The notes under the pieces: model-generated
Database searches by the model: none
Told to the model about the DNA's origin: nothing
What the model saw: the letters and a program-made list of their open reading frames with translations, nothing else
Part shown: piece by piece, positions 9,127-51,992 of the stretch
How the letters are laid out: each line of letters begins with the position of its first letter
How positions within the stretch are numbered: the stretch's first letter is position 1
Assembly (NCBI GenBank): GCA_032718475.1
Contig: JAUCBJ010001840.1
Location: forward strand, 38,302-102,301
Direction: 5' to 3'
DNA: 64,000 nt
DNA from: Nemertoderma westbladi
Lineage: Eukaryota; Animalia; Xenacoelomorpha
Program-made: the position numbers and the translations under genes

Positions 9127-9136
9127 CCGCTCCCTA
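9127..9136 (-). other. Bel2 polypurine tract
   Basis: Sense TAGGGAGCGG directly abuts the 3' LTR. Confidence 0.75.
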
Positions 9137-12285: not shown

Positions 12286-12286
12286 C

Positions 12287-26600: not shown

Positions 26601-28684
26601 ATTAAAAACGATGGGTGTTGAGTAAGAGAAGGAGCGAGCGCCTAAGGATACTAGGTTGTAATGGGGTATTTCTATTAAAAACGATGGGTGTTGAGTAAGA
26701 GAAGGAGCGAGCGCCAAAGGGTACTAGGTTATAACAGGGTATTTCTATTAAAAACGACAGGTGTTGAGTAAGAGAAGGAGTGAGTGCCAACGGATACTAG
26801 GTTGTAATGGGGTATTTCTATTAAAAACGATGGGTGTTGAGTAAGAGAAGGAGCGAGCGCCTAAGGATACTAGGTTGTAATGGGGTAATTCTATTAAAAA
26901 CGATGGGTGTTGAGTAAGAGAAGGAGCGAGCGCCAAAGGATGCTAGGTTGTAACGGGGTATTTCTATTGAAAACGACAGGTGCTGAGTAAGAGATGGAGC
27001 GAGCGCCAAAGGATACTAGGTTGTAATGGGGTATTTTTATTAAAAACGATAGGTGCTGAGTAAGAGAAGGAGCGAGCACCAAAGGATACTACGTTAAAAA
27101 CGACAGTTGCTGAGTAAGAGGAGGAGTGAGTGCCAAAGGATACTAGGTTGTAACGGGGTATTTCTATTAAAAACGACAGGTGCTGAGTAAGAGAAGGAGC
27201 GAGCACCAAAGGATACTAGGTTAAAAACGACAGTTGCTGAGTAAGAGGAGGAGTGAGCGCCAAAGGATACTAGGTTGTAACAGGGTATTTCTAATAAAAA
27301 CGACAGGTGCTGAGTACGAGAAGGAGCGAGCACCAAAGGATACTACGTTAAAAACGACAGTTGCTGAGTAAGAGAAGGAGCGAGCGCCAAAGGATACTAG
27401 GTTGTAACAGGGTATTTCTAATAAAAACGACAGGTGCTGAGTACGAGAAGGAGCGAGCGCCAAAGGGTACTAGGTTATAACAGGGTATTTCTATTAAAAA
27501 CGACAGGTGCTGAGTAAGAGAAGGAGCGAGCACCAAAGGATACTAGGTTAAAAACGACAGTTGCTGAGTAAGAGGAGGAGTGAGCGCCAAAGGATACTAG
27601 GTTGTAACAGGGTATTTCTAATAAAAACGACAGGTGCTGAGTACGAGAAGGAGCGAGCGCCAAAGGGTACTAGGTTATAACAGGGTATTTCTATTAAAAA
27701 CGACAGGTGCTGAGTAAGAGAAGGAGCGAGCACCAAAGGATACTAGGTTAAAAACGACAGTTGCTGAGTAAGAGGAGGAGTGAGCGCCAAAGGATACTAG
27801 GTTGTAACAGGGTATTTCTAATAAAAACGACAGGTGCTGAGTACGAGAAGGAGCGAGCGCCAAAGGGTACTAGGTTATAACAGGGTATTTCTATTAAAAA
27901 CGACAGGTGCTGAGTAAGAGAAGGAGCGAGCACCAAAGGATACTAGGTTGTAACGGGGTATTTCTAATAAAAACGACAGGTGCTGAGTAAGAGGAGGAGT
28001 GAGTGCCAAAGGATACTAGGTTGTAACGGGGTATTTCTAATAAAAACGACAGGTGCTGAGTACGAGAAGGAGCGAGCACCAAAGGATACTACGTTAAAAA
28101 CGACAGTTGCTGAGTAAGAGAAGGAGCGAGTGCCAAAGGATACTAGGTTGTAATGGGGTATTTTTATTAAAAACGACAGGTGCTGAGTAAGAGAAGGATC
28201 GAGCGCCAAAGGATACTAGGTTGTGACGGAGTATTTTAATTAATAACAACAGGTGCTGAGTAAGAGAAGGAGCGAGTGCTAAAGGATACTAGGTTGTAAC
28301 GGGGTATTTTTATTAAAAACGACAGGTGCTGAGTAAGAGAAGGAGCGAGTGCCAAAGGATACTAGGTTGTAACGGGGTATTTCTAATAAAAACGACAGGT
28401 GCTGAGTACGAGAAGGAGCGAGCACCAAAGGATACTACGTTAAAAACGACAGTTGCTGAGTAAGAGAAGGAGCGAGTGCCAAAGGATACTAGGTTGTAAC
28501 GGGGTATTTTTTATTAAAAACGATAGGTGCTGAGTAAGAGAAGGAGCGAGCGCTGAAGGATACTAGGTTGTAATGGGGTATTTTTATTAAAAACGACAGG
28601 TGCTGAATACGAGAAGGAGCGAGCGCTGAAGGATACTAGGTTGTAACGGGGTATTTTTATTAAAAACGACAGGTGCTGAGTAAG
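20636..28684. repeat. 73-bp satellite array, right part
   Basis: Same unit, resuming in phase after the TSD; contains a 1369-bp duplication and 200-bp (73+73+54) higher-order units. Confidence 0.98.
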
Positions 28685-31139: not shown

Positions 31140-32555
31140 TCGACCATTACAGTGACTTTAGCGAGTCAGAGGAGTAGTTGTGTCCTGATAATGCTAGACT
31201 ATCGGAACCACTCTATGACGATCAAACAGATAGTGAACCCGAGGACTACTGTTATCAGACCCATGGGTCTGGTTCAGTGGCTCATGCGACCTACCTAAGC
31301 AATGTCACAACGTATACCAATATAGTGGAATGTCAGGTGGTGAAGTATCAAGACCTTGACATTTTTCAATTCAGCGAAGAAGAGTTGCAAAAGGAATTGA
31401 TACGCCAAGACCTCGAGACAGGAGCTATGCACCATCGGATGATGGATAAGGACGCGATGGAACTTGGAGGATATGACCTAACTATGTCCGCGGATGAAAA
31501 AATATCGTTGGAAATGATGGAGGACACAATATGACTAATACCAACGTGACACTTCGAGGTCGGAATGTTGTGGTGTCGACAACCCCCTAAGTTGGAAAAT
31601 AATTACAACCTAGCTTTGAAACGATTGACTGGAGTAAGAGTACGACTGTTAAAGAACCAAGATATTAGGGATAAGTATTGCGCTCAGATTAACAATTATC
31701 TGATCAAGGGATTCGCCGGGAAGGTAGAATACCCCGACATTGAGACGGATCAAACCTACTATATCCCGCACCATTATGTGACCCATCCCGATAAACCAAA
31801 CAAGGTTCGTGTAGTTAACGACTGCGCTGCAGTCTATGAAGGTATGTCCCTCAACTCTGAACTGATGGATGGCCCCAATCTCAATAACTATTTGATAGGG
31901 ATCCTGTTATGCTTTAGACAGCGCCAATTCGCCTTTACTTGTGACATCGAGGCAATGTTCCACCTGGTGAGAGCCTGCAAGGCGGACCAAGACAGCCTCA
32001 GATTTCTATGGTACGAGAACGAAGACCTATCAGGCCCAGTAGTTACGTACCAGATGTACATCAGGATATTCGGCACCCACGACAGTTCCAACGGCACGCT
32101 GTTTGTTTTAAAGAAAACAGCGAAGGCCTAGATTGGAAATTATCCAGTGGACGTGATCGAGTCAATTTTGAGGACCTTCTACATGGACGACGGATTTGAA
32201 TCCAAGGATACTGCAGAAGAAGCCATAGATGTGGCTCACAGCCTACAAGAGTGCCTGGCCACAGGAGGGTATCCGTTGATCCGTTGACGAATTTCACCAC
32301 CAATTTGGATGCTTTATTGGAGTCGTTCCCGGTGAAGGATCGCGGGAGCGGAGACATTGAGTTGGGTGTGGAACCCATTCCTATGGCGCGAGTACTGGGA
32401 CATGGATAAAGTCCAGGTAAGGGTGAGATTTGAGCCCAGTAGCCCAGACAAAACCTTGACTAAGAGGATCTGCTTGTCGATCATGAGCAGACTATTTGAC
32501 CCGATGAACTTTATCAGTCCGGTAATATTACAAGCGCGAATCTGTATGAGGAAAA
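31140..32555 (+). pseudogene. Bel4 left part: decayed Bel/Pao RT
   Basis: YYIPHHYVTHPDKPNKVRVVNDCAA..SLNSELMDGP..CDIEAMF and FYMDDG. The frame ...ARICMRK continues as IWLSELEWD after Bel3. Confidence 0.9.
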
Positions 32556-33095
32556 TGTTGCCGTTATCCCAACACCAGGGGGGGAAAAACGCCGATGCTG
32601 GAGACGTGACTTTACAGACCACCGAGCCCCGGCCAGTCACCGGATATTGATTGTGGAGAAGGAATGTTTTCTGAGATGCAAGTTTGCGGTTGATAAAAAG
32701 CTGCATTAGTTGGATATACTCTTTATTGTAACTTCCTATAGTTGAAACCTGATTAAGAATAATTTTGGGCTTCCCCAAATCAATATACACCAAATATTCA
32801 CAATAATTATACACGATAATATAAATCCAGGCAGCAGGAAGTTGGCCAGGGCCTAATAGTACTCAGGCTAACCTGAATACTGCTTGCATTTTCCATCCCC
32901 CCCTGGCCCTTATAGCTATGAAATTATTCCCGTACCCTGTAAGTTGCCCCAAAGTTCGCCCATAAATCGCCCCCAGTTTATTGAATGTGCCCAAAACCCA
33001 TGGTCCCGCACCCAGTAGTAATATCGGAATAATCAATTTTAATAAAATACAAAAATATTCAACTCGCGTTATGGAAAGTTGAAATACCGCGAACA
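32556..33095 (-). repeat. Bel3 3' LTR
   Basis: 540 bp, repeated at 44178-44716; preceded on the sense strand by PPT GGGGGGG and spacer AC (33104-33096). Confidence 0.97.
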
Positions 33096-33260
33096 GTCCC
33101 CCCCAATGACCTTCGTGAAGTCTGTCGGTCGATTGAGTTTGCGTAGGTCATTCCCAATATAAAAAACCCAAATTTAATATTGCATAGTTTTTAATTAATT
33201 TGGCCTAGAGTTTGTATAAAAATAAATATTCGATAAATGTTCCTGGAATATCCCAATCCA

Positions 33261-35015
33261 CTATTTCTTTCTCTGATACGCCTTTCGTCTCTTCGCCCGT
33301 CGACTCTCATCGATCGCTATGGCTGGTAGAGGAGCGTCAACATCCATCGTGAGTAACGCTTCGGCTTGTCTCCTGGCGGCTCTTCCTTTCGAAGGCATCG
33401 GGATCATGTCGGTTCGTCTTTCCAACTCAGACTTGCGTGCCTCTAGGAACCACTCTCCGTCACCGAACTCCTCTTTATAAGAGTATAATCGTCTAATGAC
33501 TTCAAATGGACCGAATAATCCGGCGCTCAGTAGCAGATCCACGTAATGGAAAGGTAGTGTGGCCGACGTGTGGAGGCGTTCTGGGAAGGAGAAATATCCG
33601 CACGCCATCTCCTGCGTGATATTCCGAGCGTTTCTCCGAACCTTGGTCTTTAAGTGGTTGTTTGCGTATGTTTCAAACATGACCATATTTCCCATAGCGG
33701 TAACGTCTTTGGTTGGACATTTGATATAGCAGCGGGGGCTAGAGGAATGTCCACGGAAACCGCACGTGGTGCAGAGGTTATAAAGGATCGGACAGACGGA
33801 AACGTCGTGGCCCGATGTCGCGCAGTATGGGCAATAGAGTATCCCGAGGAGCTGGAGGCATGAATCGGTAACCCGATTCCTTCTGCCGCGTGGGCACTGC
33901 TCCGAACCACAGTCGCCGCATACCTCCAACTGCATCTCTCGACCAGGAAATATCGGAATCGGGACGCCGACGTAGTATTCGAGTCGTCGGTCGCTCTTCG
34001 GAATATTCTCGGTGGTCGGTAGCCCGCGGAATGCTAGGCTTTTGCGTAATAGGTTCTCGCTCCGATAACCTTCTTTGTGTCCCGCTGGTCTCAACTCGGA
34101 CGACCGTTTCTGGCGGTGGATCCATTCAGTTTGCTCGGCGTACCAACGGGTTAGTCGCATAGGGTCCTGAGGAACGGCGGGTGTAGTAGCCACCGCTGGT
34201 CGGCGAAGAGGTGCCGGGGTTTTAGACGGAGGGATACCGAGGAGATCGTCGGGGGTCGGCGCATCGCTGGGGCCCTCCTCGACCAGTATCGCTGAGCGGG
34301 TCCTTTGGTGGCTGGTACTCGGAATCTCCGACGACCAATCTTCGCCACCCGGGAAAGGATACGGGGATAACCGTTGGCATATGTCGCCGAAGTCGCTCAA
34401 TGCAGCTGTAGTGGCTACCTCCCTCGCGGGGCTACCGGAGCCGCGTGGGGTGTAAACGCCTGCTCTCTTCATCGGTTCAGCCGAGGCAACCCGTTTGGCG
34501 GCCTGTCCATACGCGGCCTCCGGCTCGAGTTGTCGCTTCGGGGTGGAGAGTAGAACACCCTCGTTTAGCCATATCTCTTCTCCTTCCGAAGAGATCAGAG
34601 GCTCCTCCGCACCGAGAAGTTCGGTAATCGTAGGGATGTCGTAAGGTCCGCTCTCGTCCCAGGAATCGATAACGGTGAGCGTTTTAGTCTCTCCCGGTGC
34701 GATGTTCTCGACCGCTTTGAACGCGTGGTGTATGACCTCGTTCCAGTCGTAGTCGACGAAGGAAAGGGGGACCGCCGCAATAAGGTTATCGAGAGTTCTA
34801 CAGATAAACTTAGCGACGGTGTAGCATTCCATAACGACGTAAACGTAGTTCCGTCGATCGGGATTCTCCCATCTTTGGTGTATCGTCCACTTCCGATCAA
34901 CGTCCTTCCATCGACCCTCTCGCTCGCTCTTTATTTCCAATCCCGGATATCCACCGTATATTTTATTATAGTCCCGGAATTTCTGGGGTTTGAAGTCGAT
35001 ACCGCCGTTTAGCAC
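33261..35015 (-). CDS. Bel3 accessory ORF, C-terminal part: end of exonuclease domain, Pro-rich linker, Cys/His knuckles
   Basis: KSGIGYLAVLNGGIDFK..W..YVYVVMEC (ExoIII-like), then CGDC..C and CPYCATSGHDVSVC..CTTCGFRGHSSSPRC. Same sense as pol and inside the LTRs. Confidence 0.8.
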   Translation of the reverse strand: MLNGGIDFKPQKFRDYNKIYGGYPGLEIKSEREGRWKDVDRKWTIHQRWENPDRRNYVYVVMECYTVAKFICRTLDNLIAAVPLSFVDYDWNEVIHHAFKAVENIAPGETKTLTVIDSWDESGPYDIPTITELLGAEEPLISSEGEEIWLNEGVLLSTPKRQLEPEAAYGQAAKRVASAEPMKRAGVYTPRGSGSPAREVATTAALSDFGDICQRLSPYPFPGGEDWSSEIPSTSHQRTRSAILVEEGPSDAPTPDDLLGIPPSKTPAPLRRPAVATTPAVPQDPMRLTRWYAEQTEWIHRQKRSSELRPAGHKEGYRSENLLRKSLAFRGLPTTENIPKSDRRLEYYVGVPIPIFPGREMQLEVCGDCGSEQCPRGRRNRVTDSCLQLLGILYCPYCATSGHDVSVCPILYNLCTTCGFRGHSSSPRCYIKCPTKDVTAMGNMVMFETYANNHLKTKVRRNARNITQEMACGYFSFPERLHTSATLPFHYVDLLLSAGLFGPFEVIRRLYSYKEEFGDGEWFLEARKSELERRTDMIPMPSKGRAARRQAEALLTMDVDAPLPAIAIDESRRAKRRKAYQRKK

Positions 35016-35758
35016 AGCGAGGTAGCCGATCCCGGATTTCGTCGGTTTCTTCCTGCAGGAGCGTTCGCGTAGTCGTTCCGGACGTCCGCCTTGATATCCG
35101 ACCCGATTTTAATGACGTCGAAGTCGAAGAGGATCTTTTGGATTTCCGGAGGCAGCAACCAGATCGCTCCGGCTGCCTGCACTTCCTGTCTGGGTGTCGG
35201 GAAAATTCGGCACACCAGTACCAAACCGTCCAGGGTTCCGAGGACGACGACTAAGGATCGACCGTATTCTTTCGCCCCGTACTTTTCCTGGTAGTCGTCG
35301 CGGTTTTGGATAATCGATACGCGTTCCTCTCGAAGCGTCGCCGTACACTCCGACAGGTTTCCCCAGTGGGCGAGGTACGTACTCTTGTCGTCGACGAAAC
35401 TCTGACATCTCGCCAACGTAATCGCCTTCGAGGTGGGCGTCGCGTTTCCCTCGTTGTCGTAGATCAAACATCGGGATCTGTAGACGCTCTGCCGGAATGT
35501 TTCCCAAAACGACGAATCGTCCCCTCCGGTTGCCTTTGCGTTCCGAGTTCTTTTCAGTCTCGTACTAGCATCGGCTAACCGGAGGGCTCGTAGATTCTTA
35601 GAATCCGGTCCCTCTCGCCCGGTGAATTTAATGACTCGCACGTTCTCATTTAGCAGGGTGCTCCAATTTGTATCAAAGTCAGGGGATCCGGGTTGCGAAT
35701 ATTCCAGTAGATCTATCGTGTTACGTAATTCGCCGATAATTTGGCGATTTGGGTCCAT
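35009..35758 (-). CDS. Bel3 accessory ORF, N-terminal part: DEDDy 3'-5' exonuclease-like (WRN/EXD/MUT-7 type)
   Basis: ExoI-like LIYDNEG; LLPPEIQKILFDFDVIKIGSDIKADVRND matches the LP..L..lL.d..i.KvG..i..D consensus. Confidence 0.75.
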   Translation of the reverse strand: MDPNRQIIGELRNTIDLLEYSQPGSPDFDTNWSTLLNENVRVIKFTGREGPDSKNLRALRLADASTRLKRTRNAKATGGDDSSFWETFRQSVYRSRCLIYDNEGNATPTSKAITLARCQSFVDDKSTYLAHWGNLSECTATLREERVSIIQNRDDYQEKYGAKEYGRSLVVVLGTLDGLVLVCRIFPTPRQEVQAAGAIWLLPPEIQKILFDFDVIKIGSDIKADVRNDYANAPAGRNRRNPGSATSLC

Positions 35759-36299
35759 ATTTACGATTATATCCGTTACAAATTAGATCAGTTAATTATA
35801 AGTCCAGAAAGTCTGAAACTATAGCGATAGCAGAATAATTCAGTTTTTTATTTAATTCAGTTTATTAATAACATTGCTATATAGGCATCTATCATCTTAT
35901 TGCTAATACATTCAGCATTTACAGTTACTATAGCTATTCATAATATCCAACCAGTTTTTTTTATGACTTTTTTGTCCTTTCTTTTTTCTAATTCTTTTCT
36001 TTAGACTTTTTTATACCTTTTTTTTGTCTTTTTTAATTTCATTATTATTTCATCTCATTTCATTTATTTCCACATATATTTCATCATTTAGTTCCACCAT
36101 TTATTTCACATTTATTTATTTCCACATCATCATTGGGTTTATAGCCCCCCGGCTATCATCATTGGTTATAAGCGCAGCACCAGGGTGCGCATCATTTCAT
36201 TTTCATCAGCATATGCGTCATCATTCAGGTTTATAGTAGAGTTGTCTGATCCTTTTCATCGTTTCAAACTATATTCAATCATTTTCTTTGGTTAATCTT

Positions 36300-36731
36300 T
36301 GTCGTGGAAGGGGTGTTACGCGGCAATCTGGGATCTACAGCTGGACTCGTTACACCGCCTACGCCCCAAACTGCACACGTAACGGACAATGACGACGCTG
36401 GGAGTGAAGTCACGTGGATGCACCAGGGACCCACCAGAATAACACTCCCAACAACATAAAGCTCAGTCGACGAAGTCATGTGGGATGGGGTTACTCAACA
36501 TTCTGGGATCTACAGCTGGACTCGTTACACCGCCTACGCCCCAAAATCCACGTAACGGTCCCACCAGAATAACGCGACTGAGAAACATAAAACCCTCTAT
36601 CGTCGAAGTCATGTGGATGCACCATGGACCCACCAGAATAACGGGAAAGAGGGGGTGTTGCGCGGCAATCCGGGATCTACAGCTGGACTCGTTACACCGC
36701 CTACGCCCCGAACTGCGCACGCAACGGACAA
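36300..36731. repeat. Three ~170-bp tandem units between pol and the accessory ORF of Bel3
   Basis: Core GGGATCTACAGCTGGACTCGTTACACCGCCTACGCCCC at 36330, 36505 and 36672. Confidence 0.9.
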
Positions 36732-37004
36732 CATAACATACTGCAATGAATACAATGAATTCCACTTCAAATCTTTTCCATTTCCAATAATCCAATATCA
36801 TTGGTCCCGATGACCAAAATCAGGGTAAACAATACATAAACGACCCTGCGTCGGTCGAAACATCTGCAGGGTGATGCTGGACTCCACATAACACACGAGG
36901 AAACACAAATACCATTGCGTGGTTACAGTTGGTTTAAGGGGGGTCCATAATTCGTTGTCGATAAATCACAGTTTAAAAGAGTTTGTTAACATGATGAGAA
37001 GGGT

Positions 37005-38471
37005 TTAAACGCATTTGTAATTGTCACCAATGTCTGCAGCAGGATCCGTAGTAGGGAACTTATCACCTCTCGTAGAATCACCACTGTCATTGCCTTCAAG
37101 AAGGCACAGCTTTTGGATGGGGCGTTGGTAGTGGCCCGATTTCGTTCGTATCGTCACAGTCCTCGCAAGTCCGTCTTTGCTTGGGTGTATGGTCACGACC
37201 CGCGCCACAGGCCAGTGAACGCGGTCTTTGAGATCTTCTTTAACTAGTACCATGTCGCCAACTGCGACGTTCCGGTAGGTGTTGTTCCATTTCCTCCTGG
37301 TCCGGAGGGTTATGAGGTACTCCTGGGCCCAAATTCTCCACCAATGCGCTGCCAACGCTTGGGCCTTTTTCCAGTTTGTATGTTTCGCGATCTCGTTGGG
37401 ATCCGGGAACATGGTTTCCGGGAGGACGTGGGTTTTGGGTCTCCCCAGTAAGTGGTTAGGAGTGAGGGGCTCCAGGTCTGTGGGGTCGTCGCGGATAGGG
37501 ACAATGGGTCGGTTGTTCAGGGTAGCCGTGATCTCGCAGAATGTTGTGCGGAGGGTGTCATGGGTTACCCGGGTATCGCCTAGAGCGACGCGCATGGATC
37601 GTTTCACTAGGTCGATCAGTTTCTCCCATACCCCGCTCGTATGGGGTGCTAAGGGGGTCTGGAAGTGCCACTGTATCTGGTGTTCCTTCCAGACTTGGGA
37701 TGCGGTGTTATCGGTAAACCATCCCTCGATCGCCTCTCTAAGTTCTCTTTCTCCTCCCACAAAGTTTGTACCATTATCGGAATACATGTGGCGGCATGTC
37801 CCGTTGTTCGCCACGAACCGACGCAGAGCGTTGATGAATGCGTGTTGTGTCAGATTTACCACGATATCTAGGTAAATTGCCCTAGACCTTAGGCAGGTGA
37901 AGATGGCTCCCCAGCATTTGATGTTGGATCGTCGTTCAATAACCGTGAACGGTCCGAAACAGTCCACTCCGGTGACGTAGAATGGTGGGGAATCCGCTTG
38001 TAGACGGGTGGCTGGTAAGTCGGCCATCTTTTGGGTGATTGGTGGCGCTAGGTAACGTCTGCAGGTGAAGCAACGTTTCAACACTTTCCGGATCAGTGGC
38101 TGGATGTGGGTGATCCAATATCTTTGTCTTATATTAGCTATAATCCAATTCTGTCCTGCGTGGTGGTTGTCCTCGTGACATTGTAGAATTAATAGCTTAG
38201 CTAGTGTCGACGTTCCGGGCAGAAGCGCCGGGTATTTAACCTCATATTCGACCGGGGCGTTTGCCATCCGGGTATTCAGTCGGATCAGTCCGTCCTCTCC
38301 CATCATTGGTCTCAGTTGGTAGACTGGGCTGTCCGGTTTCAACGTTTTGCCCGCACTAAGTTGTTCCCATTCATCGGGGAAACTTTCTTTCTGGACATAT
38401 CTAACAATACACTTCTCCGCGATAATAGTTCTTGTATATTCCGTTGAACTATCGGTTTGTTGTTTTTCCAC
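37005..38471 (-). CDS. Bel3 integrase (frameshifted from the polyprotein)
   Basis: HEDNHHAG..CFTC; GVDCFGP, SDNGTNF, GVWEKL. Confidence 0.93.
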   Translation of the reverse strand: MEKQQTDSSTEYTRTIIAEKCIVRYVQKESFPDEWEQLSAGKTLKPDSPVYQLRPMMGEDGLIRLNTRMANAPVEYEVKYPALLPGTSTLAKLLILQCHEDNHHAGQNWIIANIRQRYWITHIQPLIRKVLKRCFTCRRYLAPPITQKMADLPATRLQADSPPFYVTGVDCFGPFTVIERRSNIKCWGAIFTCLRSRAIYLDIVVNLTQHAFINALRRFVANNGTCRHMYSDNGTNFVGGERELREAIEGWFTDNTASQVWKEHQIQWHFQTPLAPHTSGVWEKLIDLVKRSMRVALGDTRVTHDTLRTTFCEITATLNNRPIVPIRDDPTDLEPLTPNHLLGRPKTHVLPETMFPDPNEIAKHTNWKKAQALAAHWWRIWAQEYLITLRTRRKWNNTYRNVAVGDMVLVKEDLKDRVHWPVARVVTIHPSKDGLARTVTIRTKSGHYQRPIQKLCLLEGNDSGDSTRGDKFPTTDPAADIGDNYKCV

Positions 38472-41400
38472 CGTAGGAAGTTGCGAAGGGTTATAACGTG
38501 GTGGACGAGCCGTCTCATGGATGAAGTTCGCTCGATCAACCGATGTAAAGACGCCGCTAGTTGAGTGATCGTCGCGACGTTATAGTGCCTGCCCGAGTCC
38601 TTTGCAGGCTCAGTCAGGCAACTATAAATTTCCACCGCGTTGCTTCGATGGATTTTACGGATCTCTTTATCGTCCTCGGAGTATTTTCCGCTATCGAGCT
38701 CGGGGTCGAATCGGGTACTCCATGTTAATTGTGGCTGCCGTAGGAATTCCGGGCCTGTAAGCCAGAGTTTACTTTTACCGAGTTGTTTTGGGGTGGCGCC
38801 TCGGCTTGATAAGTCCGCTGGGTTTTCCTTCCCGTTCACGTGATGCCACTGTTCTCGGCCGGTACACTGTTTAATCTCCGTGGCTCGGTTTGCAACAAAC
38901 GTGGTGTGACGCCGTGATGGAGAGTGGAGATAATAGAGAACTATACTCGAATCTACCCAGAAGTGTTGAGATTCTATGGGGATCCGTAGGTTCCGCATGG
39001 CCATGCGATTCTGTCTTACTGCCCAAACTGCAGCTTGTAGCTCGAGTCTCGGAATCGTTGCTACGAATTCCCCGGATACTGTCTTTGCTTTGGAGAATAA
39101 GAAGCTTGTATCGCCGTTTCCATCGTTACTTAGTCTCCGTAAGAAGGTGACTACGCCGATTCCGGTATTCGAAGCATCCGAAAAGGTGTGGAGCTGGAAG
39201 ATATCGGTGGGCAGTTTATCGAGGAAGAACGGTCTAGGTATCCGCATAAGATGTAGGTGTTCGAGCTGCTCCGTCCATTTTCTCCATTTGACGCTAAGGT
39301 ATGGGGGAAGCTCTTCGTCCCATCCCAGTCCTTCTATCCACATTTCCTTAATCAGGTTCATTCCGGCCAAGGTTACTGGAGATATGAAATTTAGTGGGTC
39401 GAAGATGGCGCTTTTTATCGACAAACATCCCCTTTTTGTCATAGGCTTGGGTAGGGGTTTATATTTGAAGATGAATTCATCTGATTCTATGTCCCATTCA
39501 ATCCCGAGTACACGATGTTCCACATCCTCCGAATACATCTTGTTATTTTCCAGCCGGATGTCCTCCGGAAACTTTTCCATAAGTGTTTTGTCGTGGGATC
39601 TGAACTTCACGAGCGGAAACCCTCCTTTCTTTAGACATTCTACCATCCCCATTGCTAGCCGATACGCCTCATCTACATTATCCGCGCCGGCGCATCCGTC
39701 GTCCACGTAGAAGCATCGTCGAATGGTTTCTATGACGGTTGGAGGGAACTCGTTTTCGCACATAGTTGCCGTCCTCTTTAGCATGTCACTGCATGCTACC
39801 GGCGAGTCCTTAGCGCCGAAGATCCTGACGACCATACGCATTACGTCTACGTCCTTTATCGTGAGTTGGCTAATCTCCTGTTGAGTAAGCGTTTTATCCG
39901 TCCATAGGATACGTAGACAGTCCGAGTCTCTTGGTAACGTACGAACTTGATGAAACATGGCCTTGATGTCACAGGTGAATGCTACCCGGTTTTCCCTGAA
40001 CCTGATCAATACGCCGATGAGTGTGCTATATATGTTGGGTCCCGTGTAAAGTTGACTGTTTAGGGATTCGCCCTGGTACATAGCGGCAGCATCATTTACC
40101 ACTCGGATTTTCCCACCTTTGCGGGCTTCTACTACATAGTGGGTCGGGAGATAATATGTTCTTTTACCACCTTGCAGTTCGTTCCGTGGTACCATTTCTG
40201 CTAATCCATCATCGAGATATCCTTGGATTACGGTATTATACTTCTCCTTTATCTCGGGTTGGTCATTCAGTCGGCGTAGAATCCCTTTAAGTCGCCTAAG
40301 TGCCATGCTGCCGTTGTTTGCCATTGGTTTGTTTGGGTCCTTCCATAACATAGGTGAACACCAGTGTCCGTCTTTAAACGTGGCCTGGTCGAGAACGTCC
40401 ATACAATATTGGTCTTCTTCGGATGGGTTTTCGTCCTTTTCCGCGAACTCCTGGGTCTCCAAATTAAAATATTTCGTCATCTCTCGTTGGGTTTTCTCGG
40501 TTTCCAGAAACAAATCCTCGTCAAGATCCGAAGCTGAGCAATAACCCACAGAGGTTACATTCTCTTTAATCTGACATTTGGGAAGGTAGGTATAGGTGTC
40601 CGTAGTTTCCTCCTTAATGCCGCAGAGTGTCCATCCCATTATTGTTCGTTCAGCATAAAATCCGTCATCCTGGTTTATAGATCGGGCGATATCTCCGGTG
40701 GGGATGTGTAGTTCCGGTGTATCAAGTCCGATCAGTAGGGTGATACGGTTTACGTCCAACTGCAGACACCTCAGGTCTACATCGTATCGGTCCAATTGTA
40801 TGAGGGGGGCGTACTCGGCTGATTGTCGGAACCGCACCCGGAGGTCTGTGTGTACCAAGGCGTTCTTGATGGTTAACCTAGCCGTTTCGTAGCCCTTCAT
40901 CACTCCTTCCATCTGGAGTTGCACCTCCCCGGACTCTACCTCTTTGTTATCGGTGATGGTTTGTATGGGCCGTTTACAAGGTTCATATTCTAGGCCGAGT
41001 TGCTCGAGGAAATCCCGGTCGATGATGGTTCCGTCGGACCCGTTATCGAGGAACGCGAGTGTCGTCAAAGATTTGCCGACTCCTTGGATCCTTACTGGGA
41101 TTACCTTTGCGAAGACCATGTAGCGGCGATTTATAAGATTAATCGTGGCCGAAATATTTGTTACTTGTGGTGTATCGGTGGAGATTTTAAACGGGTTGGT
41201 TTCTCTCCGTTGGGTTGTCCGGGTTCCTTTGAAGACGTGGTTTGTTTCTCCTCTTCGCCTGGCTTCGATCCGAAAGGGGAGGGTAGTAAAATCGAAGTTC
41301 GCGGGGATGTGGAGGAGCGTGTGATGGCGTTGGTCGTTACAGACAGCACAGCATGATCTTTGGTCGCACTCCCGAACATAGTGACCTGTTCCAAGACACC

Positions 41401-43378
41401 GGAAGCATCCTCGGTGTTTCATTATCGCCTCGAAGTGTGGGACGAGTTCGGCGAACTGAAACTTTCTGGAGAATTCCACTTTATGTTTCTCCCCACAGAA
41501 GAGACAGAGCAGGGAATTTGTGATGCCTTCCCTTTCGGGTGCCCAACTCGCGAGATAACATGCCCATTCCTCAGCGGATGTCGGTTCCTCGTAGCCTTCG
41601 TCGTCGGAATCCTCGGCCATGGTGATGGCCATCGTACTCACCGGTGGGGGGCGGAATCTCGGTTTCGGAGGGGTTATCTTACTCCTGGAGTTGCTTTCTA
41701 TTCCGTCCAACTTTGCGAGACTTTGTTTTGAAAACATCGAGTCATTCATGGCTTCGGAGATATCGTCCAGGAATACCGACATTTCAAGGAAGCTAGGATC
41801 TCGATCTGGATGTCTGCGCCGGAGATCTACACATTTATAAGCCCACTTACTTTGTAGCCATCCGGGGAACTTCCGGGCGATCTGTCGGAGGTTTAGAATG
41901 TTGTTTACCTGGTCCTCCTTATTTAAGGGTTTCAGAGTATAGTAGGCATCTTTCATAGAGTCGGAGAATTCCTGTATGTTCTGTGGGTCCCCTAGTGATC
42001 CCGTGTCCTGTATCAGTCTCTCTAGAGTTTTATTAATTATAGTATCGGTATTTCCGTATCTTTTATCTAGAGTTTTCCATGCGTCATAGTATGCCTCATG
42101 AGAACCTCCTTCAAAACATGCAACAATTCTGCGTGGTTTGTCACCCAGGTATTGCGATAAATATACCAATTTCTGTGCGTCGGCTATGTCCGTTGATCCG
42201 ATCTGCGCAAAGAACCGTTTCTTGAATCTGAGGTAATCGACGGGATCTCCTTCGAAGGTGCGAATCTCCATCTTAGGCATGGCAAGGCGGTTCTCCAACG
42301 CCCGGATGATGCTGACGTCGTCTGAACTGGAGTGACTCGGAGGGTTATAGTTATTGGCACTCACTCCCATACTTGATGGATCGATAATAGGTGGAGTATT
42401 AATGATGACGCGACTACGGGTTTGTGGTGTGGATGTGAATGGGTTGTTGGATCGAGGAGTGGCGTCCCGTTCCGAGTCCCTTTCAGGCTCGTACTTGGGT
42501 ACACTCGTTGCTGTGGGGTTGGATGGGAAATACGGTTCCTCATTTTTAAGCGTAACCGGTGGGGGATGGAACACTGGTGCTTGTGCCGATAACGTAGACT
42601 GTTTGGTAGGCGAAACCTCGGGTTTCGGAAGTTTCGCCGCTGTCGGTATAAATGACTTCTCTAATTCCGGTACCGGGATTGGTTCATATTCCTGATCTAT
42701 ATCCCTTTCCCAGTCCTCGTAGAGTTGAATATCTCGTTCTATTAGTGCGGCTTCGTACTCCGCGAGTTTTGCAATATCCGCATTCTTTTTGTGGATGAGA
42801 ATCGCTTGGGCCTCGGCGTGTTGTTTACGCATTTCTGCTTCCCATTTACGTTGTTCGATCTCCCGTTCGGCCTCTCGTCCACGTTGTTCAGCCTCCTGTT
42901 TGCGTTGTTCGGCCTGCCGTTCGGCCTCGCGTTCACGTTGTTTAGCCTCTCGTTTGCGGTGTTCCGCCTCCTGTTCGCGTTGTTCAGCCTCCTGTTCGTG
43001 TTGTTCAGCCTGCCGTTCGGCCTCTCGTCTATGTTGTTCCGCCTCCTGTTCGCGTTGTTCGGCTTGCCGTTCGGCCGCTTGTTCGGCCTCTCGCTTTTGT
43101 GTTTCGGCGGCTAATACATCTTGCTCGGCTTGCAGTTGGATATACTCATCTTCCATCCGAGCTTTGAGGGCTAATGCCTTCCGTTCTCGCAGTTGGTCTC
43201 GGAGTGGCGGCGCCCCTGGAGAACTGCGCGCTGAGCCGGATATCTCGCTCCTAGCGCTGGAGTGCTGATTTCTAGCGGACCCCGTTCTCTTTCGATGTAC
43301 TGCTGTCCTGATGCTGGAGGATCGTACTGATTCCGCGTCTGTTCTTTCAGCCCTCTTGTAATACTGTTTGTTCCTCAT
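38339..43378 (-). CDS. Bel3 Gag-protease-RT-RNase H polyprotein
   Basis: MPKMEIRTFEGDP, knuckles CFRCLGTGHYVREC/CAVC..HHTLLH, protease FLDNGS, RT YVDD, RNase H LHTFSDAS/IPRLELQAA/NPADLSSRG. Confidence 0.95.
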   Translation of the reverse strand: MRNKQYYKRAERTDAESVRSSSIRTAVHRKRTGSARNQHSSARSEISGSARSSPGAPPLRDQLRERKALALKARMEDEYIQLQAEQDVLAAETQKREAEQAAERQAEQREQEAEQHRREAERQAEQHEQEAEQREQEAEHRKREAKQREREAERQAEQRKQEAEQRGREAEREIEQRKWEAEMRKQHAEAQAILIHKKNADIAKLAEYEAALIERDIQLYEDWERDIDQEYEPIPVPELEKSFIPTAAKLPKPEVSPTKQSTLSAQAPVFHPPPVTLKNEEPYFPSNPTATSVPKYEPERDSERDATPRSNNPFTSTPQTRSRVIINTPPIIDPSSMGVSANNYNPPSHSSSDDVSIIRALENRLAMPKMEIRTFEGDPVDYLRFKKRFFAQIGSTDIADAQKLVYLSQYLGDKPRRIVACFEGGSHEAYYDAWKTLDKRYGNTDTIINKTLERLIQDTGSLGDPQNIQEFSDSMKDAYYTLKPLNKEDQVNNILNLRQIARKFPGWLQSKWAYKCVDLRRRHPDRDPSFLEMSVFLDDISEAMNDSMFSKQSLAKLDGIESNSRSKITPPKPRFRPPPVSTMAITMAEDSDDEGYEEPTSAEEWACYLASWAPEREGITNSLLCLFCGEKHKVEFSRKFQFAELVPHFEAIMKHRGCFRCLGTGHYVRECDQRSCCAVCNDQRHHTLLHIPANFDFTTLPFRIEARRRGETNHVFKGTRTTQRRETNPFKISTDTPQVTNISATINLINRRYMVFAKVIPVRIQGVGKSLTTLAFLDNGSDGTIIDRDFLEQLGLEYEPCKRPIQTITDNKEVESGEVQLQMEGVMKGYETARLTIKNALVHTDLRVRFRQSAEYAPLIQLDRYDVDLRCLQLDVNRITLLIGLDTPELHIPTGDIARSINQDDGFYAERTIMGWTLCGIKEETTDTYTYLPKCQIKENVTSVGYCSASDLDEDLFLETEKTQREMTKYFNLETQEFAEKDENPSEEDQYCMDVLDQATFKDGHWCSPMLWKDPNKPMANNGSMALRRLKGILRRLNDQPEIKEKYNTVIQGYLDDGLAEMVPRNELQGGKRTYYLPTHYVVEARKGGKIRVVNDAAAMYQGESLNSQLYTGPNIYSTLIGVLIRFRENRVAFTCDIKAMFHQVRTLPRDSDCLRILWTDKTLTQQEISQLTIKDVDVMRMVVRIFGAKDSPVACSDMLKRTATMCENEFPPTVIETIRRCFYVDDGCAGADNVDEAYRLAMGMVECLKKGGFPLVKFRSHDKTLMEKFPEDIRLENNKMYSEDVEHRVLGIEWDIESDEFIFKYKPLPKPMTKRGCLSIKSAIFDPLNFISPVTLAGMNLIKEMWIEGLGWDEELPPYLSVKWRKWTEQLEHLHLMRIPRPFFLDKLPTDIFQLHTFSDASNTGIGVVTFLRRLSNDGNGDTSFLFSKAKTVSGEFVATIPRLELQAAVWAVRQNRMAMRNLRIPIESQHFWVDSSIVLYYLHSPSRRHTTFVANRATEIKQCTGREQWHHVNGKENPADLSSRGATPKQLGKSKLWLTGPEFLRQPQLTWSTRFDPELDSGKYSEDDKEIRKIHRSNAVEIYSCLTEPAKDSGRHYNVATITQLAASLHRLIERTSSMRRLVHHVITLRNFLRWKNNKPIVQRNIQELLSRRSVLLDMSRKKVSPMNGNNLVRAKR

Positions 43379-43739
43379 AGCCTCTCACGAGGCTGAGGGT
43401 CCTCCGGTGTTGTTTGCGGAACCCATCTAGATGTACGACGTGTTCTTCCAACTTGGGGTAGTTTTCCTGATCGGTGGGGGGAACGAGCTCTTGGTACGCC
43501 TGTATCATTCTTTCGTACCGCTGTAGGATATTTCGGATACTTTGAAGCTGAGTTTGTACCTCATTGAGGGGGGATTTGACTCCCTTGAGTTGTTTCTCCA
43601 TCCGTTGATACGCTCGGGTTACTCCGCCTTTAAGAGCCCCTAACCGACGGGTCATGTTCTTGACGTTTGGTACCTCGTCGGCTTCCGAGTCTGTGTGGTG
43701 ATCCATCTCGTCGGTATCGGATACGTTATTTGTCGTCAT
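43347..43739 (-). CDS. Bel3 Gag N-terminus (frameshifted)
   Basis: RRLGALKGGVTRAY is a Bel Gag N-terminal-type helix; deleting one G in GAGGGCTGA restores ...VLQEAERTDAES. Confidence 0.8.
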   Translation of the reverse strand: MTTNNVSDTDEMDHHTDSEADEVPNVKNMTRRLGALKGGVTRAYQRMEKQLKGVKSPLNEVQTQLQSIRNILQRYERMIQAYQELVPPTDQENYPKLEEHVVHLDGFRKQHRRTLSLVRGYEEQTVLQEG

Positions 43740-43927
43740 TGTAACGCCTCGTCGATGGCTAGATACGCGATGTCATAAAACAGTTCCTCGTAGGTATTGT
43801 ACTCAGCTTGGACCACCCGAACAGTAATCCTGAATCGTCCGACGTTCGTTCCTTGTACTTCAACTTCGACGTGCCAGATTCCTGGCTCAACTTGAATTAT
43901 ATCAATGGGTGTGATCGATACTTCCAT
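43736..43927 (-). CDS. Bel3 small upstream ORF (63 aa), unknown function
   Basis: ATG-initiated; its stop overlaps the gag start as ATGA. Confidence 0.45.
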   Translation of the reverse strand: MEVSITPIDIIQVEPGIWHVEVEVQGTNVGRFRITVRVVQAEYNTYEELFYDIAYLAIDEALQ

Positions 43928-44177
43928 TCCCTGTTAACAACTCTCCAAATATGTGATCTGCCGACTACGAGTTGGTTAGATCGAGTTTGTTGATTAATTA
44001 AACCACGACTTTGTCTCAACTCAAATACCAGAGTTTCCTCGTAGTTGGTGCTGGCAAGCACGTAGAGAGTTTTGAAGAGTATTGAAGGATTCTCAACTTC
44101 CACCAGTTGAAGTTGACCGTAATTATTCTTAATTTTGACACCCTGTCAAAATTAACCACGTGAATTATTCTTAATTT

Positions 44178-44716
44178 TGTTGCCGTTATCCCAACACCAG
44201 GGGGGAAAAACGCCGATGCTGGAGACGTGACTTTACAGACCACCGAGCCCCGGCCAGTCACCGGATATTGATTGTGGAGAAGGAATGTTTTCTGAGATGC
44301 AAGTTTGCGGTTGATAAAAAGCTGCATTAGTTGGATATACTCTTTAATGTAACTTCCTATAGTTGAAACCTGATTAAGAATAATTTTGGGCTTCCCCAAA
44401 TCAATATACACCAAATATTCACAATAATTATACACGATAATATAAATCCAGGCAGCAGGAAGTTGGCCAGGGCCTAAAAGTACTCAGGCTAACCTGAATA
44501 CTGCTTGCATTTTCCATCCCCCCCTGGCCCTTATAGCTATGAAATTATTCCCGTACCCTGTAAGTTGCCCCAAAGTTCGCCCATAAATCGCCCCCAGTTT
44601 ATTGAATGTGCCCAAAACCCATGGTCCCGCACCCAGTAGTAATATCGGAATAATCAATTTTAATAAAATACAAAAATATTCAACTCGCGTTATGGAAAGT
44701 TGAAATACCGCGAACA
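44178..44716 (-). repeat. Bel3 5' LTR
   Basis: 539 bp, direct repeat of 32556-33095. Confidence 0.97.
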
Positions 44717-44721
44717 GAAAA

Positions 44722-46036
44722 TATGGTTGTCCGAATTAGAATGGGACGCGCCGATATCCCCAATACACGCTAAGCAGTGGAGAGAGTGGGAGGCCAAACA
44801 ACATATATTAAAGGATATAGATATACCCCAATCCTACTTTCCGAATCATTTGGTATTTCCAGCTGATATGGAACTACACCTATTCAGCGATGCAAGTGAC
44901 ACCGTCTTTGGTATGGTAGCATACCTTCGCCGAGAGGTAAGTCAGGATAAGTTTGAGAGAGTCTTTGTTACTTCTTGATCAAAGACAATGCCGATCAAAT
45001 ACATGACTGTCCCTCGTACAAAGTTGCAGGCAGCAGTGGTATCGGTTGAGGTGAGTAAACAAATAAAAGAAGAATTAGACAAGACCTTGACATTATTATA
45101 TTGGACGGATGCATCTTTGGTGCTAGTATATATTGCAGCAGACAATATCGCACTAAAGACGTTAGTAGCTAACAAACGTGCGCAGATAGTCGATTTTTCG
45201 ATGAAGGAGCAATGGAGACATTGTCTGGGAGTGTTAAACCCCGCCGACATAACTTCACGAGGTGCCATACCAGCTGAATTCTGTCAGGAAGAATCACAGG
45301 AGTTTTGGTTACATGGACCAGATTTTCTGACAAGGACGCAGGAACATTGGCCAGAGATGCTGAAGATTGTTACCAATCCGATGCTGATAGATGCGGACTT
45401 CAAGATATATAAGGTTTCCAAGTCCAAGTCGAAGGCCAGACTAGAATCATTGGAGCGGCCCGAAGGATCACTGGAGCAGCCTGAAGAATCATTGGAGCGG
45501 CCCGAAGGATCACTGGAGCGGCTTGAAGAATCGTTGGAGCGACCCGTACACTTGTCGGACCAAGAGACATATGTGACCACAAGGTCCAGAACGGTAAGTT
45601 ATGACATAAAGCCACCCTTACAGACTGCACAAGGAGCGGAAAAGTCGCAGTTAGTAAGTGACAGACAGGAAATAACCATAAAGGTGGAGCCTTCAGTTTA
45701 CAAATCTGTGGATTTTGATTCGAAGATTCCATTAGCGAGTATGCGACCATCACCAGCACCAGAGCCACGTAGTATTTATGACAAATTGATAGAATCGTCC
45801 GCCTCTTGGACAATTCGTCCAATTTGACCTCTTGGCTACAATTTGTAAGAGAACCGCGTGGTTGAGCTGATATGTTTCGTTCCTTTATTTAAAATATGCG
45901 AAACAATTAGGAGAACAAACGAGCACTAACAGTGAGCGAATTCGGAAGTTGAAATAACCTCTGACAGAGGGTGAAATTGATCAACCGGAATTAAAACATT
46001 TGAGACATTATCAGATGTGTGCTTTCCCAAAAGAAT
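44722..46036 (+). pseudogene. Bel4 right part: decayed RT end and RNase H; integrase absent
   Basis: LHLFSDAS, TVPRTKLQAA, YWTDA, NPADITSRG, WLHGPDFL; 21-bp repeats encoding LERPEGS/LEQPEES at ~45450-45545; similarity stops after AFPKEF. Confidence 0.9.
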
Positions 46037-46763: not shown

Positions 46764-47435
46764 TTGAGAAGGGATAGGTTTAAGGCAGTTGAGGACCGAA
46801 TGGAGGTATTGCGGCGCGAATACAGAACCCAATACCCTTACGACTTTGCCATCGACGTGTGCAATGTGAGCGCGAACCCCAATGGGGAGATCGCCAGACT
46901 GTATCATATGAACATGTATCTGTCGCATGATGAACCCCTACCTGCCATTAGAGATCAGTTTGATGGGATGCATCTATATCGAAGAGCCCGAGGAGAAGAT
47001 GAGGAAACGTCGAAAGTCTTCAGTATATACAAGCTGTTCTACAAATGTGGAGAGTGCATGAACAAACAAGATGTATCCATTCCCGATCGTATAAACAAAC
47101 TAAATCCTGAGCCGATATTAATGCGGTGTAAGGCGCACCAGTTCCTCAGGAACAACGAAGGAGGTTACCCGATGAGTAATCCAATGATAAGCATCGACTT
47201 TAGTGGGAAGAGACCCCCGAGGCCTATTATACCGACCATTACGACTCTGGATCCGTATACTGAGGTTGGACCTCGTACAACTCCTGCCTTAATGGAAATG
47301 ACTGCGGCCATTTCGCTTTACCAAGAGTACAAAGACGGAGGCACGGCGCGAAGCGGCACGGGACTCGAGTATGGAGCTCTCGAGTCCCTGGTCAACATTC
47401 ACTTCGCCACATCCGGAAAAGAAGCTCATGTCTGA
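46764..47435 (+). CDS. Unknown ORF (CxxC...CxxH) upstream of the second exonuclease ORF
   Basis: Open frame of 223 codons with CGEC and CKAH; stop overlaps the next start as ATGTCTGA. Confidence 0.5.
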   Translation: MRRDRFKAVEDRMEVLRREYRTQYPYDFAIDVCNVSANPNGEIARLYHMNMYLSHDEPLPAIRDQFDGMHLYRRARGEDEETSKVFSIYKLFYKCGECMNKQDVSIPDRINKLNPEPILMRCKAHQFLRNNEGGYPMSNPMISIDFSGKRPPRPIIPTITTLDPYTEVGPRTTPALMEMTAAISLYQEYKDGGTARSGTGLEYGALESLVNIHFATSGKEAHV

Positions 47436-50300
47436 GCAACAGGATGAGATAGACGTGTTGCGACAGGAAGAACGAGCGGCAAAGGCGAAACAACTTTTCA
47501 TGGAACGCATAGCTGAGTACAATAAGACTGAGGATAGACACCAGGAAAATAAGATGAAAGTTACAGGATTCATTCCACAAGCTATTTCTCAACCCAGACC
47601 AGTGTATTATTCAGGCAGTAACGAAGCTGCGATATTGGTAGATCATTCAGAAGCGCGAGAAACCATTCGGTTCTAACATCACGGGAACTTCGACTGCTTG
47701 AGAGAAGCCATAATTGCGAAGTTCCTACGTGATGTTCCTATGCAGATCACAGACTACGACACCTTGGACAAGATTGGAGCCCCAGGGAGGGTAAGTAATT
47801 AGTTCAGGTGCTTGGATAAATACATAAAGGTATGGATCGCAGTGGCCACGTTCCCAGATGATGAGGAGGTGGACTAAGCATGGTTAAGGCGGAAGGGTTC
47901 CTATACCCACTACGATGACCCTAAGACCATAGAACGCATATGGACCCAACCTGAGGAAATACAACGCCAGTGGAGGAAGATGGAGGAGTCATAAGAGGAC
48001 TGGCGATTAATGTTCTATGATAATGAGGGAGGGTCTCACCAAGAGTGCCTGACGAGCCAATGTATCCAAATCCGAGCAGCTGATGGTGTAACCCACATGT
48101 TTATGAGCGTGAGAGCAGACTGGGACAGACCGAAGCCAATCATAACAACACAATATAGACGCAGGAAGGATCCCCGGGAGCAGATTCTAGAGGTATGTCG
48201 GTGAGGAGGTATGCATGGAGCGGAATGAATAGATGCGAGGATGTTGCCCAAGAAGGTTAGGGAGGCGATTCTCAACCAAGATTATGTCAAGGTGGGATCA
48301 GGTGTCCAAAGTGATTTAGAGATTGATTTCAATGCTATGGCAGACCCGGAGGACCGATTGCCGAGACCGTTTGTCGATACGAAACTATTACTGCTATGGT
48401 CGCAGGATGTTGGGATTTATAGAGAGTACCCAATTCTGCCAAGACTGGTATGGGTTTTATAGCGCATTTATTATATAATTGGGATTTTAAGTTGAAGACG
48501 CAGAAGAAGTATGAGGAGGCGTATGGTGAATATAAAACGCCGCCAGGAGCCGAGTTCAAATCCCATTTTAAGTGACAAGCTTTGGTATATTGGAACATTT
48601 GCACACCACCTCGCGCTTCGTTGCAGTATTATTTAGTGTTGGATTCAAACATGGTAACTTGCCTGATAACGGACATAGTCGCGAGAGTTTTGAAGCGTCA
48701 TCCGTTGGTGTTTGGAGGAGATCAATACATCAGATCAAAGGGAGAAATTCAGTCCGATGTGATGAAGCGTTTCTTAACCCCGTTCTTCAACCAATCTTTG
48801 GATAACACATCGATGGTCAGAAAGGGATTAGCGATTTTCGAGGGAGTATACCGACAGAACATTGGAGACTTGGAAGATCGACCTTCCGTGGAGTATCCGA
48901 CGCCAGAAGCGTTAGAGAAGTTGTTCAGGAACCAAACCCGCTGGTTTGGTACTCCCAGTCACATGGACGCAGACAGAGCGGTTAGGGAGAAGAAGGGAGA
49001 GGGTTGGCCGGAGACATTAGTAGAGGTGTTCGGAATGGATCTTCCGGTGGAGAAGACATATCCTAAACGGACGAGAGAGGAAATATTAGAGGTCAAGAGT
49101 AAGGGTGAGGATGCTTACTTTGTTCCAGAACAACAACCCTTGACCGTAAAAAGATGACATCGTTCTAGACATTGGGAAAGAAGGGAGTGCGAGACCGATT
49201 GGAGACCTAATATATGAGAGGGCTTGGTTCCCACAAGCGTGTAGATGTAAATTGTGCAGTAGCACAAGACACAGTCAGAAAACGTGTAAAGCAATTGTCA
49301 AACCAGCGCACAAGGTCTGCCGTTGGTGGAACGAAATGGATCATTCCTTTTATACGTGTACCATGTTCATTTCCCAGTGCGTATATTGTGGGGTGAAGGG
49401 ACATTGCAGCTCCAAGTGTCAGCTGCGCAATGACCCCTTTCAGCACCATAGCGCCATCCTTCTTCGAGAGATGTTGGATAAGTGGGAGGAAGTGGTGGAC
49501 TATCACATCCAGGCCCAAATGCGGTAGCTGCCGTTCAAGGCAGGATATGGATTCTGGGTGGTGGATCTGTCACATGTAGCATATGAACCCTACCTTCAAT
49601 CGCTACCACAGTATCAAGAGTTGATGCTTACTGCCCAAGACATTCCAAGAAATACAGGAGTTGTAGTTATTAGATCATATTTCCGACAACTCAACATGGA
49701 CAATCAGTATACGTGGAACTTTGTCAGTATTTGTGATCAGATCACGAATGGAATATTTTCAGAGACCAGGAAAGTGGTACGCGCGAGAGGCGATTGGAGG
49801 ATGGCGGCCATCCAATATAGGAACGAGTTTCTATTAACGCATGTTCGTTTGGGGTCATTGACCACTGAATGAATAGAGAAAGTAAGAGCCAACACGCCCA
49901 CAGCGACGACAGAGTACTGGCGAAGCAGTCCTTGGCAAATGGCAAGCTAAGGATGCGCAATATCATGGAATTATTGATGCACAGCGGCTGCAGCGAAAGG
50001 CACAGGGGATGTACGAAAGGCAGGTGTGCAGCTACAGAAGGAGGAATTAGCGGAGTTACCTACAGCGGCGCGGCATATGGGGCGAGGTTGAGGACGGTGC
50101 GTTAGTCGGGAAACCATTAGCGCTCAAGGATCATCTTGATCGCCAATCCCGGGAAGCGAGGCCTCCAGGACGCTGTCAGCAGATTCTGCCGGGGGCAGAT
50201 GGGTATATTTGGGACGAGGCCAGAATAGGGGAGCAAGCCCGAGAGACCCGGGAAGGAGCCAGCGACAAACTGTAGACATATACATCATCATCACTCTGAT
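47428..50300 (+). pseudogene. Decayed DEDDy exonuclease plus Cys/His knuckle ORF, homologous to the Bel3 accessory ORF
   Basis: ATG 47428 is in frame with MFYDNEG (48010). Then LPKKVREAILNQDYVKVGSGVQSDLEIDF, RPFVDTK, KTGMGFIAHLLYNWDFK, YYLVLDS, CVYCGVKGHCSSKC, with several stops and frameshifts. End approximate. Confidence 0.8.
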
Positions 50301-50349
50301 GTATATTGTAGGTAATAAAAATATATATCAGACTGGACTCATTGAACAT

Positions 50350-51960: not shown

Positions 51961-51992
51961 TTAATTAGAATATTAGCTTTAATCAATTAATC

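Follow-up and report, generated by a model that had tools for sequence, protein, structure and literature searches.

DEDDy-type 3'-5' exonuclease genes are known cargo of retroelements. As the original prediction for the present locus had correctly stated, and as far as the available parts of the reports go, they form the ORF3 of the Gypsy-like elements Juno and Vesta of bdelloid rotifers and also occur in the Athena/Terminon elements (PMC5408684; PMC6431247). Comparable cargo is found in other transposons: in the available excerpts, Dada (DEDDy, PMC3706591) and KolobokD (DEDDh, PMC9587614) likewise encode DnaQ-like 3'-5' exonucleases, but both are DNA transposons for which processing of DNA ends was proposed, and the domain of Dada sits inside the transposase. 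Bel/Pao elements can carry env-like ORFs (Roo F-like and mosquito gB-like; PMC13524379, available part), which share slot and superfamily with the ORF presented here but encode membrane fusogens.

The accessory ORF in question lies in a window of 64,000 nt from Nemertoderma westbladi (contig JAUCBJ010001840.1), the whole stretch of DNA that was analysed. Like the ORF3 of Juno and Vesta, it follows pol as an ORF of its own, occupies the position of env, carries putative DEDDy-type motifs, lacks a transmembrane part and is of putative function; however, its host is a Bel/Pao element whereas theirs are Gypsy-like. It is furthermore much longer (at least 829 codons) and has a linker, a knuckle array and a C-terminal domain, while for the rotifer ORF3s only a Cys-His-Cys motif is mentioned, and this in some of them (PMC5408684, available part). 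Its motif would read D-E-D-E/D in contrast to the DEED of the rotifer proteins. A Bel/Pao element with a DEDDy ORF or a knuckle fusion is not named in the available part of PMC5408684, and the literature searched, mostly titles and abstracts, held no exonuclease ORF in Bel/Pao, although Repbase or Dfam entries could already hold one. Thus, DEDDy cargo as such is known from LTR elements, while its probable presence in Bel/Pao and the knuckle architecture are new here in that we did not find them in print.

The element itself lies on the minus strand and is bounded by a 5' LTR of 539 nt with TG..CA ends (44178..44716) and a 3' LTR (32556..33095), which are 99.4% identical over 541 nt, in line with the near-identity noted before. 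It is flanked by a 5-bp target-site duplication, GAAAA (44717..44721, with its twin at 32551-32555), and a polypurine tract (G7) is found directly inside the 3' LTR (~33096-33104). The element is young and was recently active. Its gag-protease-RT-RNase H region (38339..43772, minus strand) comprises DUF1759, zf-CCHC, an Asp protease and Peptidase_A17 and is interrupted by a frame break at ~43350-43380; the integrase (37005..38579, minus strand; H2C2, rve, DUF5641) occupies its own frame in the present copy. Based on the Pao-specific Pfam domains of gag-pol and integrase (Peptidase_A17 with E 1.5e-37, DUF1759, DUF5641, H2C2) and on the gag-PR-RT-RH-IN order, the host is a Bel/Pao (Belpaoviridae) LTR retrotransposon. 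The nearest relatives of its RT are Pao-domain polyproteins with 35-41% identity, the best among 2,301 RT-region relatives reaching 40-41%. With 12 kb its size is ordinary, and it was inserted in the pol region of an older Bel/Pao element on the plus strand.

The accessory ORF consists of two overlapping minus-strand frames, one starting at the ATG at 35758 and one ending at the stop at 33261, which together comprise 237+592 = 829 codons. Its ATG lies 1,246 bp past the integrase stop in the same sense and its stop 165 bp ahead of the 3' LTR. The frame of ~830 codons about 1.25 kb behind the integrase was thus seen correctly, and all of the motifs and knuckles quoted for it were located. The N-terminal piece (35047..35758, 237 codons) starts with a leader of ~95 aa, followed by the predicted ExoI, D101-x-E103 within YDNEG (35461-35447), and the predicted ExoII, K-x-G-x5-D225 within KIGSDIKAD (35110-35084). 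In the C-terminal piece (33261..35039, 592 codons) a putative ExoIII, YVVME (34841-34827), was assigned by eye. It is followed by a low-complexity linker rich in Pro, Ser, Thr, Glu and Ala (~34650-34005, 47% P/S/T/E/A), a Cys cluster (33920-33894), a canonical C-x2-C-x4-H-x4-C knuckle (33833-33792) and a second knuckle of the x5 variant, C-x2-C-x4-H-x5-C (33773-33729). In Pfam, the match to zf-CCHC_4 had an E of only 0.8. The overall order is a predicted nuclease domain, the linker, two or three knuckles and a C-terminal domain that is conserved.

Genes of the env type are characterized by a signal peptide, a fusion peptide and a C-terminal membrane anchor. A hydropathy scan of the accessory ORF revealed no membrane anchor or transmembrane helix, as had been claimed: the highest Kyte-Doolittle window of 19 residues (2.08), the single one at this level, maps to two strands of a seeded nuclease model, and the maximum of the C-terminal half is 1.24. 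We rejected an env identity, since the ORF lacks a membrane anchor and shows nuclease and knuckle motifs instead.

Between both pieces the frame is broken. The original prediction had placed a frameshift at ~35040-35060, where the VDT segment of a homologue is missing; the break is real and the segment is absent, while the position is refined to 35037-35046 and the cause is a deletion in the window copy. This was revealed by sibling copies, represented by contigs that cover the whole ORF and were taken from publicly available sequencing runs for this organism, from 3 samples and 3 studies. Contigs entering the break from either side continue with unmatched letters in 4 of 4 runs of one comparison, with up to ~70-89 unmatched bases in one run (X4) and loose ends in run X3 as well. 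Since sibling contigs hold extra sequence at this point, the window copy has lost a stretch that its siblings retain. The deletion is consistent with the missing VDT segment, which is present in the older homologue discussed below, and the window copy of the gene is broken and probably non-functional. Programmed -1 frameshifting was considered and rejected, because of the extra sequence in the siblings and because no canonical slippery heptamer was seen by eye. The idea had come up as the older homologue likewise changes frame near this position.

That homologue, to which the original prediction had referred for the VDT segment, is a decayed ORF of the older Bel/Pao element (47431..49950, plus strand) with several stops and two frame changes. 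It contains, in order, FYDNEG (48013-48030), KVGSGVQSD with LP.. ahead of it (48289-48315), FVDT (48370-48381), KTGMGF (48441-48458), YYLVLD with a Y-x3-D (48627-48644) and an array with two canonical C-x2-C-x4-H-x4-C knuckles (~49240-49420). Young and old ORF are connected by three collinear BLASTP matches (E 2e-4, 3e-5 and 4e-4) and have the motifs in the same order; their alignments show 21-27% identity, with YVVME placed against YLVLD. The RT regions of both carriers are 39% identical, thus the accessory ORF diverges faster than the RT. Since the RT identity is this low, the gene either is old in the Bel/Pao lineage or was exchanged long ago. A third Bel/Pao element of the window (8528-20634) is young as well, with LTRs of 99.3% identity, and has no ORF of at least 100 aa between integrase and LTR.

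Within the young family, the accessory ORF is a real, multi-copy gene under purifying selection. Absence from siblings or neutral evolution had been named as outcomes that speak against the original prediction; sibling contigs instead cover the ORF, and 40 of the 57 variant sites listed are synonymous, as compared to the 29% that the transition bias seen here would predict (p=2e-10, omega ~0.17). The figures are a coarse estimate from the contig-variant rows with the best support, not the output of a codon model, the 57 sites being 21 from the best 40 of 256 rows plus the best 40 of 118 rows, with 4 common to both. Synonymous changes make up 18 of 23 polymorphic and 13 of 16 near-fixed sites, but only 9 of the 18 sites that are almost confined to the diverged X4 contigs; one of these sites is a stop. 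Among the 12 indels listed of 30, none falls in coding parts, which make up 56% of the stretch; four indel rows in the second variant listing all belong to one contig and sum to +3. The codons of the predicted catalytic residues (D and E of ExoI, D of ExoII) are unhit in the best 40 of 118 variant rows. For comparison, the available part of PMC5408684 reports such tests for env and GDSL ORFs alone, which showed near-neutral variation.

As to the identity of the encoded protein, direct searches gave little. Pfam returned no PF01612 match for any piece, the pieces being split by the break; PDB sequence searches of the ORF gave no match and word-index searches no homologue, while viral contigs and phages gave blank or spurious matches. 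Among 1.84 billion representatives no homologue was found: there were three matches, and the two inspected were FG-GAP-like repeat proteins sharing the word YEND. A language-model search (Atlas) provided a lead for the N-terminal half, with a score of 0.90, 24 of 30 matches in PF01612 sets and a cluster richest in Rotifera first; the C-terminal half had no match. We also used a WRN-like profile of 34 bacterial WRN-like exonucleases from gathered PF01612 loci, whose seed matches human WRN with E 1.5e-17. Tiles of the accessory ORF rank first and second of all six-frame tiles of the window, and the young ORF scores 10.0 bits against a maximum of 3.9 in 1000 shuffles; the older homologue (2.4-3.4 bits) falls inside the shuffle tail. 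By hhalign, the probability is 74% for WRN-like as opposed to 4% for RNase D/PolA-type enzymes. The ExoII segment reaches 90% (E 1.4e-6) and was matched by 0 of 25 shuffles, with profile matches extending over 26-27 columns only. Global hhalign gave no useful alignment, and none of the other four segments (ExoI, vDL, post-break helix, ExoIII) rose above shuffles. A 36-row alignment contains 10 columns that are WRN-invariant; both elements retain 6 of them (D, E, Q, K, G, D), among these the ExoI D-x-E and the ExoII D, against a maximum of 4 in 100 runs with shuffled pieces.

The structural check suggested earlier was carried out with limited yield. The unseeded AlphaFold fold of the ORF has a pLDDT of 32. 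A seeded half-domain model (pLDDT 62) has EXD2 as best neighbour (Z 4.7, rmsd 4.1, 85 aligned residues), and ~25 of its 37 neighbour rows are DEDD nucleases by title reading, including EXD2, Exd1 and Nibbler; both results are circular, as the model was seeded, and Foldseek found no match for it. The ORF shares with the WRN/EXD2/MUT-7/Nibbler/Exd1 group (PF01612) an ExoI D-x-E, an LP...K-x-G-x5-D ExoII and a VDT/vDL segment (in the older homologue only), to which a putative ExoIII Y-x3-D/E near the end may be added by eye. It differs from these enzymes in falling below Pfam detection, in long inter-motif insertions (the ExoI-ExoII spacing exceeds that of WRN-like enzymes by 40-65 residues), in the knuckle fusion, in its mobile carrier and in the final acidic residue, which is E in the young family and D in the old element. 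Of the DEDDy order proposed originally, ExoI and ExoII are thus supported, whereas ExoIII lacks a profile match and Pfam stays blank. From the ExoI and ExoII evidence, and with ExoIII assigned by eye only, we consider the ORF very probably DEDDy-derived; that the predicted nuclease is also catalytically active is reasonably likely.

Bel/Pao elements typically have a tRNA primer-binding site starting with TGG beside the 5' LTR. Such a site is absent here, the first TGG being 19 nt off. Instead, 13 nt at the primer-site position (44163..44175, minus strand) are perfectly complementary to LTR nt 332-344 (44373-44385), a length reached by 1 of 2000 shuffled LTRs; in both predicted folds the primer site pairs with this LTR segment, ~23 nt after a TATA-like word. 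Rfam gave no match at 32400-52400 and the window contains no tRNA gene, which leaves no sign of a tRNA-like primer encoded by the element. The layout resembles the self-priming of Tf1/Tj1 (PMC4600332, available part) and is in this sense self-priming-like. The third element shows the same layout with 11 nt (3 of 2000 shuffles). Since this young element has no accessory gene, the predicted nuclease is dispensable in cis for priming.

Nibbler acts in small-RNA pathways. The same is stated for Exd1 and mut-7 in the available part of PMC5408684. Counter-defence was among the functions suggested originally, and the reading we prefer, tentatively and as plausible rather than probable, is that the conserved Bel/Pao accessory gene encodes a WRN/EXD2-type 3'-5' exonuclease, connected through a flexible linker to RNA-binding knuckles, which trims RNA against host silencing. 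The ORF would be expressed from a subgenomic or spliced mRNA, the knuckles would bind single-stranded RNA, and a two-metal site of D101, E103, D225 and the Y and E/D of ExoIII would trim RNA 3' ends. Targets might be small-RNA precursors or antisense RNA, and their trimming would shield the element from silencing, outside core replication. A host-facing role fits best because the gene lies outside the polyprotein, is dispensable in a sister element, is conserved within families and diverges fast between them. Given a DEDDy-derived and active enzyme, we see such a role as roughly balanced with its negation or slightly favoured, the step to counter-defence being one that we infer. A more specific version, in which an active Nibbler/MUT-7-like enzyme is aimed by its knuckles at host piRNA or siRNA precursors and destroys or mis-trims them, and in which the gene is old in the Bel/Pao lineage and part of a pool shared across LTR superfamilies, is possible but unlikely. 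Equally unlikely is a role in replication, either in RNA 3'-end trimming (maturation of a self-primer, clearing of RNA leftovers) or in polishing of cDNA ends. The self-complementary site in place of a tRNA site would require that a primer end is made, the knuckles resemble nucleocapsid fingers, and in the available texts 3'-end processing was proposed for the rotifer DEDDy ORFs (PMC5408684; PMC6431247) and end processing for the nucleases of Dada (PMC3706591) and KolobokD (PMC9587614). However, the gene-less element at 8528-20634 weakens primer processing, which had also been suggested originally, although supply in trans is possible.

Alternatively, the DEDD domain might have little or no catalytic activity, and the protein would then bind RNA as a decoy or chaperone, comparable to Exd1 or Maelstrom, and shield the element RNA or titrate host factors. 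The E that ends ExoIII in the young family, the missing profile match of ExoIII and the large insertions between motifs are in agreement with this, and binding could be left to the two or three knuckles. Nevertheless, we regard it as quite improbable, as the D and E of ExoI and the D of ExoII are kept in both elements at ~25% identity and were spared among the variant rows considered above, and as the old element retains a Y-x3-D. Two further readings are more remote still. That the ORF is no DEDD nuclease at all but a knuckle protein of another fold, with a short segment resembling ExoII by chance, would agree with the few profile columns and the blank Pfam and PDB sequence searches; it is made highly improbable by ExoI, ExoII, VDT and Y-x3-D/E in correct order across two diverged elements, by the shuffle controls and by the independent language-model lead to PF01612. 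Proofreading, the last of the functions originally suggested, would make the protein a partner of the RT that excises mismatched cDNA 3' nucleotides. DEDDy domains do proofread in PolA-type polymerases, and WRN-type enzymes act on DNA. Yet a separate ORF outside the polyprotein, the preference of hhalign for the WRN-like over the RNase D/PolA-type profile and the ordinary element size leave it, if anything, a shade less credible than the chance resemblance.

It is a common expectation that transposons of animals counteract small-RNA silencing, but few element-encoded counter-measures are known. A predicted nuclease of the small-RNA-trimming class, strongly selected in the young multi-copy family and found also in a second element that is deeply diverged, would be a concrete protein to test. 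If it served end processing only, it would be a useful but modest extension. The locus would also bring to three the groups of retroelements with DEDDy cargo, after the Gypsy-like and Penelope-like ones of rotifers, which suggests a recurring strategy. As to a putative kinship with the Juno, Vesta and Athena ORFs, the best Atlas match of the present ORF is a rotifer-rich cluster (score 0.90).

In an RT tree with 60 of 120 database relatives included, the three elements of the window cluster weakly (support 0.76); this tree is silent on the order of gain or loss of the accessory gene. Besides, a 151-bp repeat at 30615/51993 is a candidate LTR of the old element.

At the primer-site position of both young Bel/Pao elements, the one bearing the accessory exonuclease-knuckle ORF and the first element of the window, a TGG tRNA site is absent. 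Each carries there, on the minus strand, a perfect complement of its own LTR, which measures 13 nt in the gene-bearing element (44163-44175; reached by 1 of 2000 shuffles) and 11 nt in the first element (20026-20036; reached by 3 of 2000), while a TAAGAA core is common to both. Judged from the sequence, this arrangement is a Tf1-like self-priming layout in both elements, and literature searches on that point found no description of such a layout in Bel/Pao. The leader of the gene-bearing element also contains a second copy of the 13-mer about 40 nt deeper (44120-44160), and this repeat surrounds a perfect hairpin.

Both young elements are furthermore interrupted by a frame break at the junction of RNase H and integrase, located at 38339-38579 in the gene-bearing element and at 12287-12318 in the first. 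The two breaks run in opposite directions, and for many database relatives a single protein with both domains is listed. We consider both breaks to be probable lesions. Between integrase and accessory ORF of the gene-bearing element, imperfect direct repeats of 83-280 nt were observed at 36304-36731, which could be expression or packaging signals.

Sequence related to this element was found in a public sequencing run (X6) labelled as a different organism, B. Its low-depth contigs are about 95-97% like the gene-bearing element and, among element-like sequence, cover parts of the accessory ORF. They may stem from contamination, diet or a related host, none of the three being preferred.

The first element has LTRs at 8528-9127 and 20037-20636 that are 99.3% identical and apparently end in TA..TA, not TG..CA, together with a 1.8-kb leader. 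Flanked by a CCCTG duplication, it inserted into a 73-bp satellite and splits a large 73/54-bp array (5913-8527 and 20649-28684).

In the old plus-strand Bel/Pao element, an intact 211-codon ORF (P0010; 46800-47435, plus strand) lies directly 5' of the decayed exonuclease homologue. A Pfam search with P0010 gave no match; it may represent a second accessory gene of the old element. A fourth, heavily decayed Bel/Pao fragment occupies 2075-5800.
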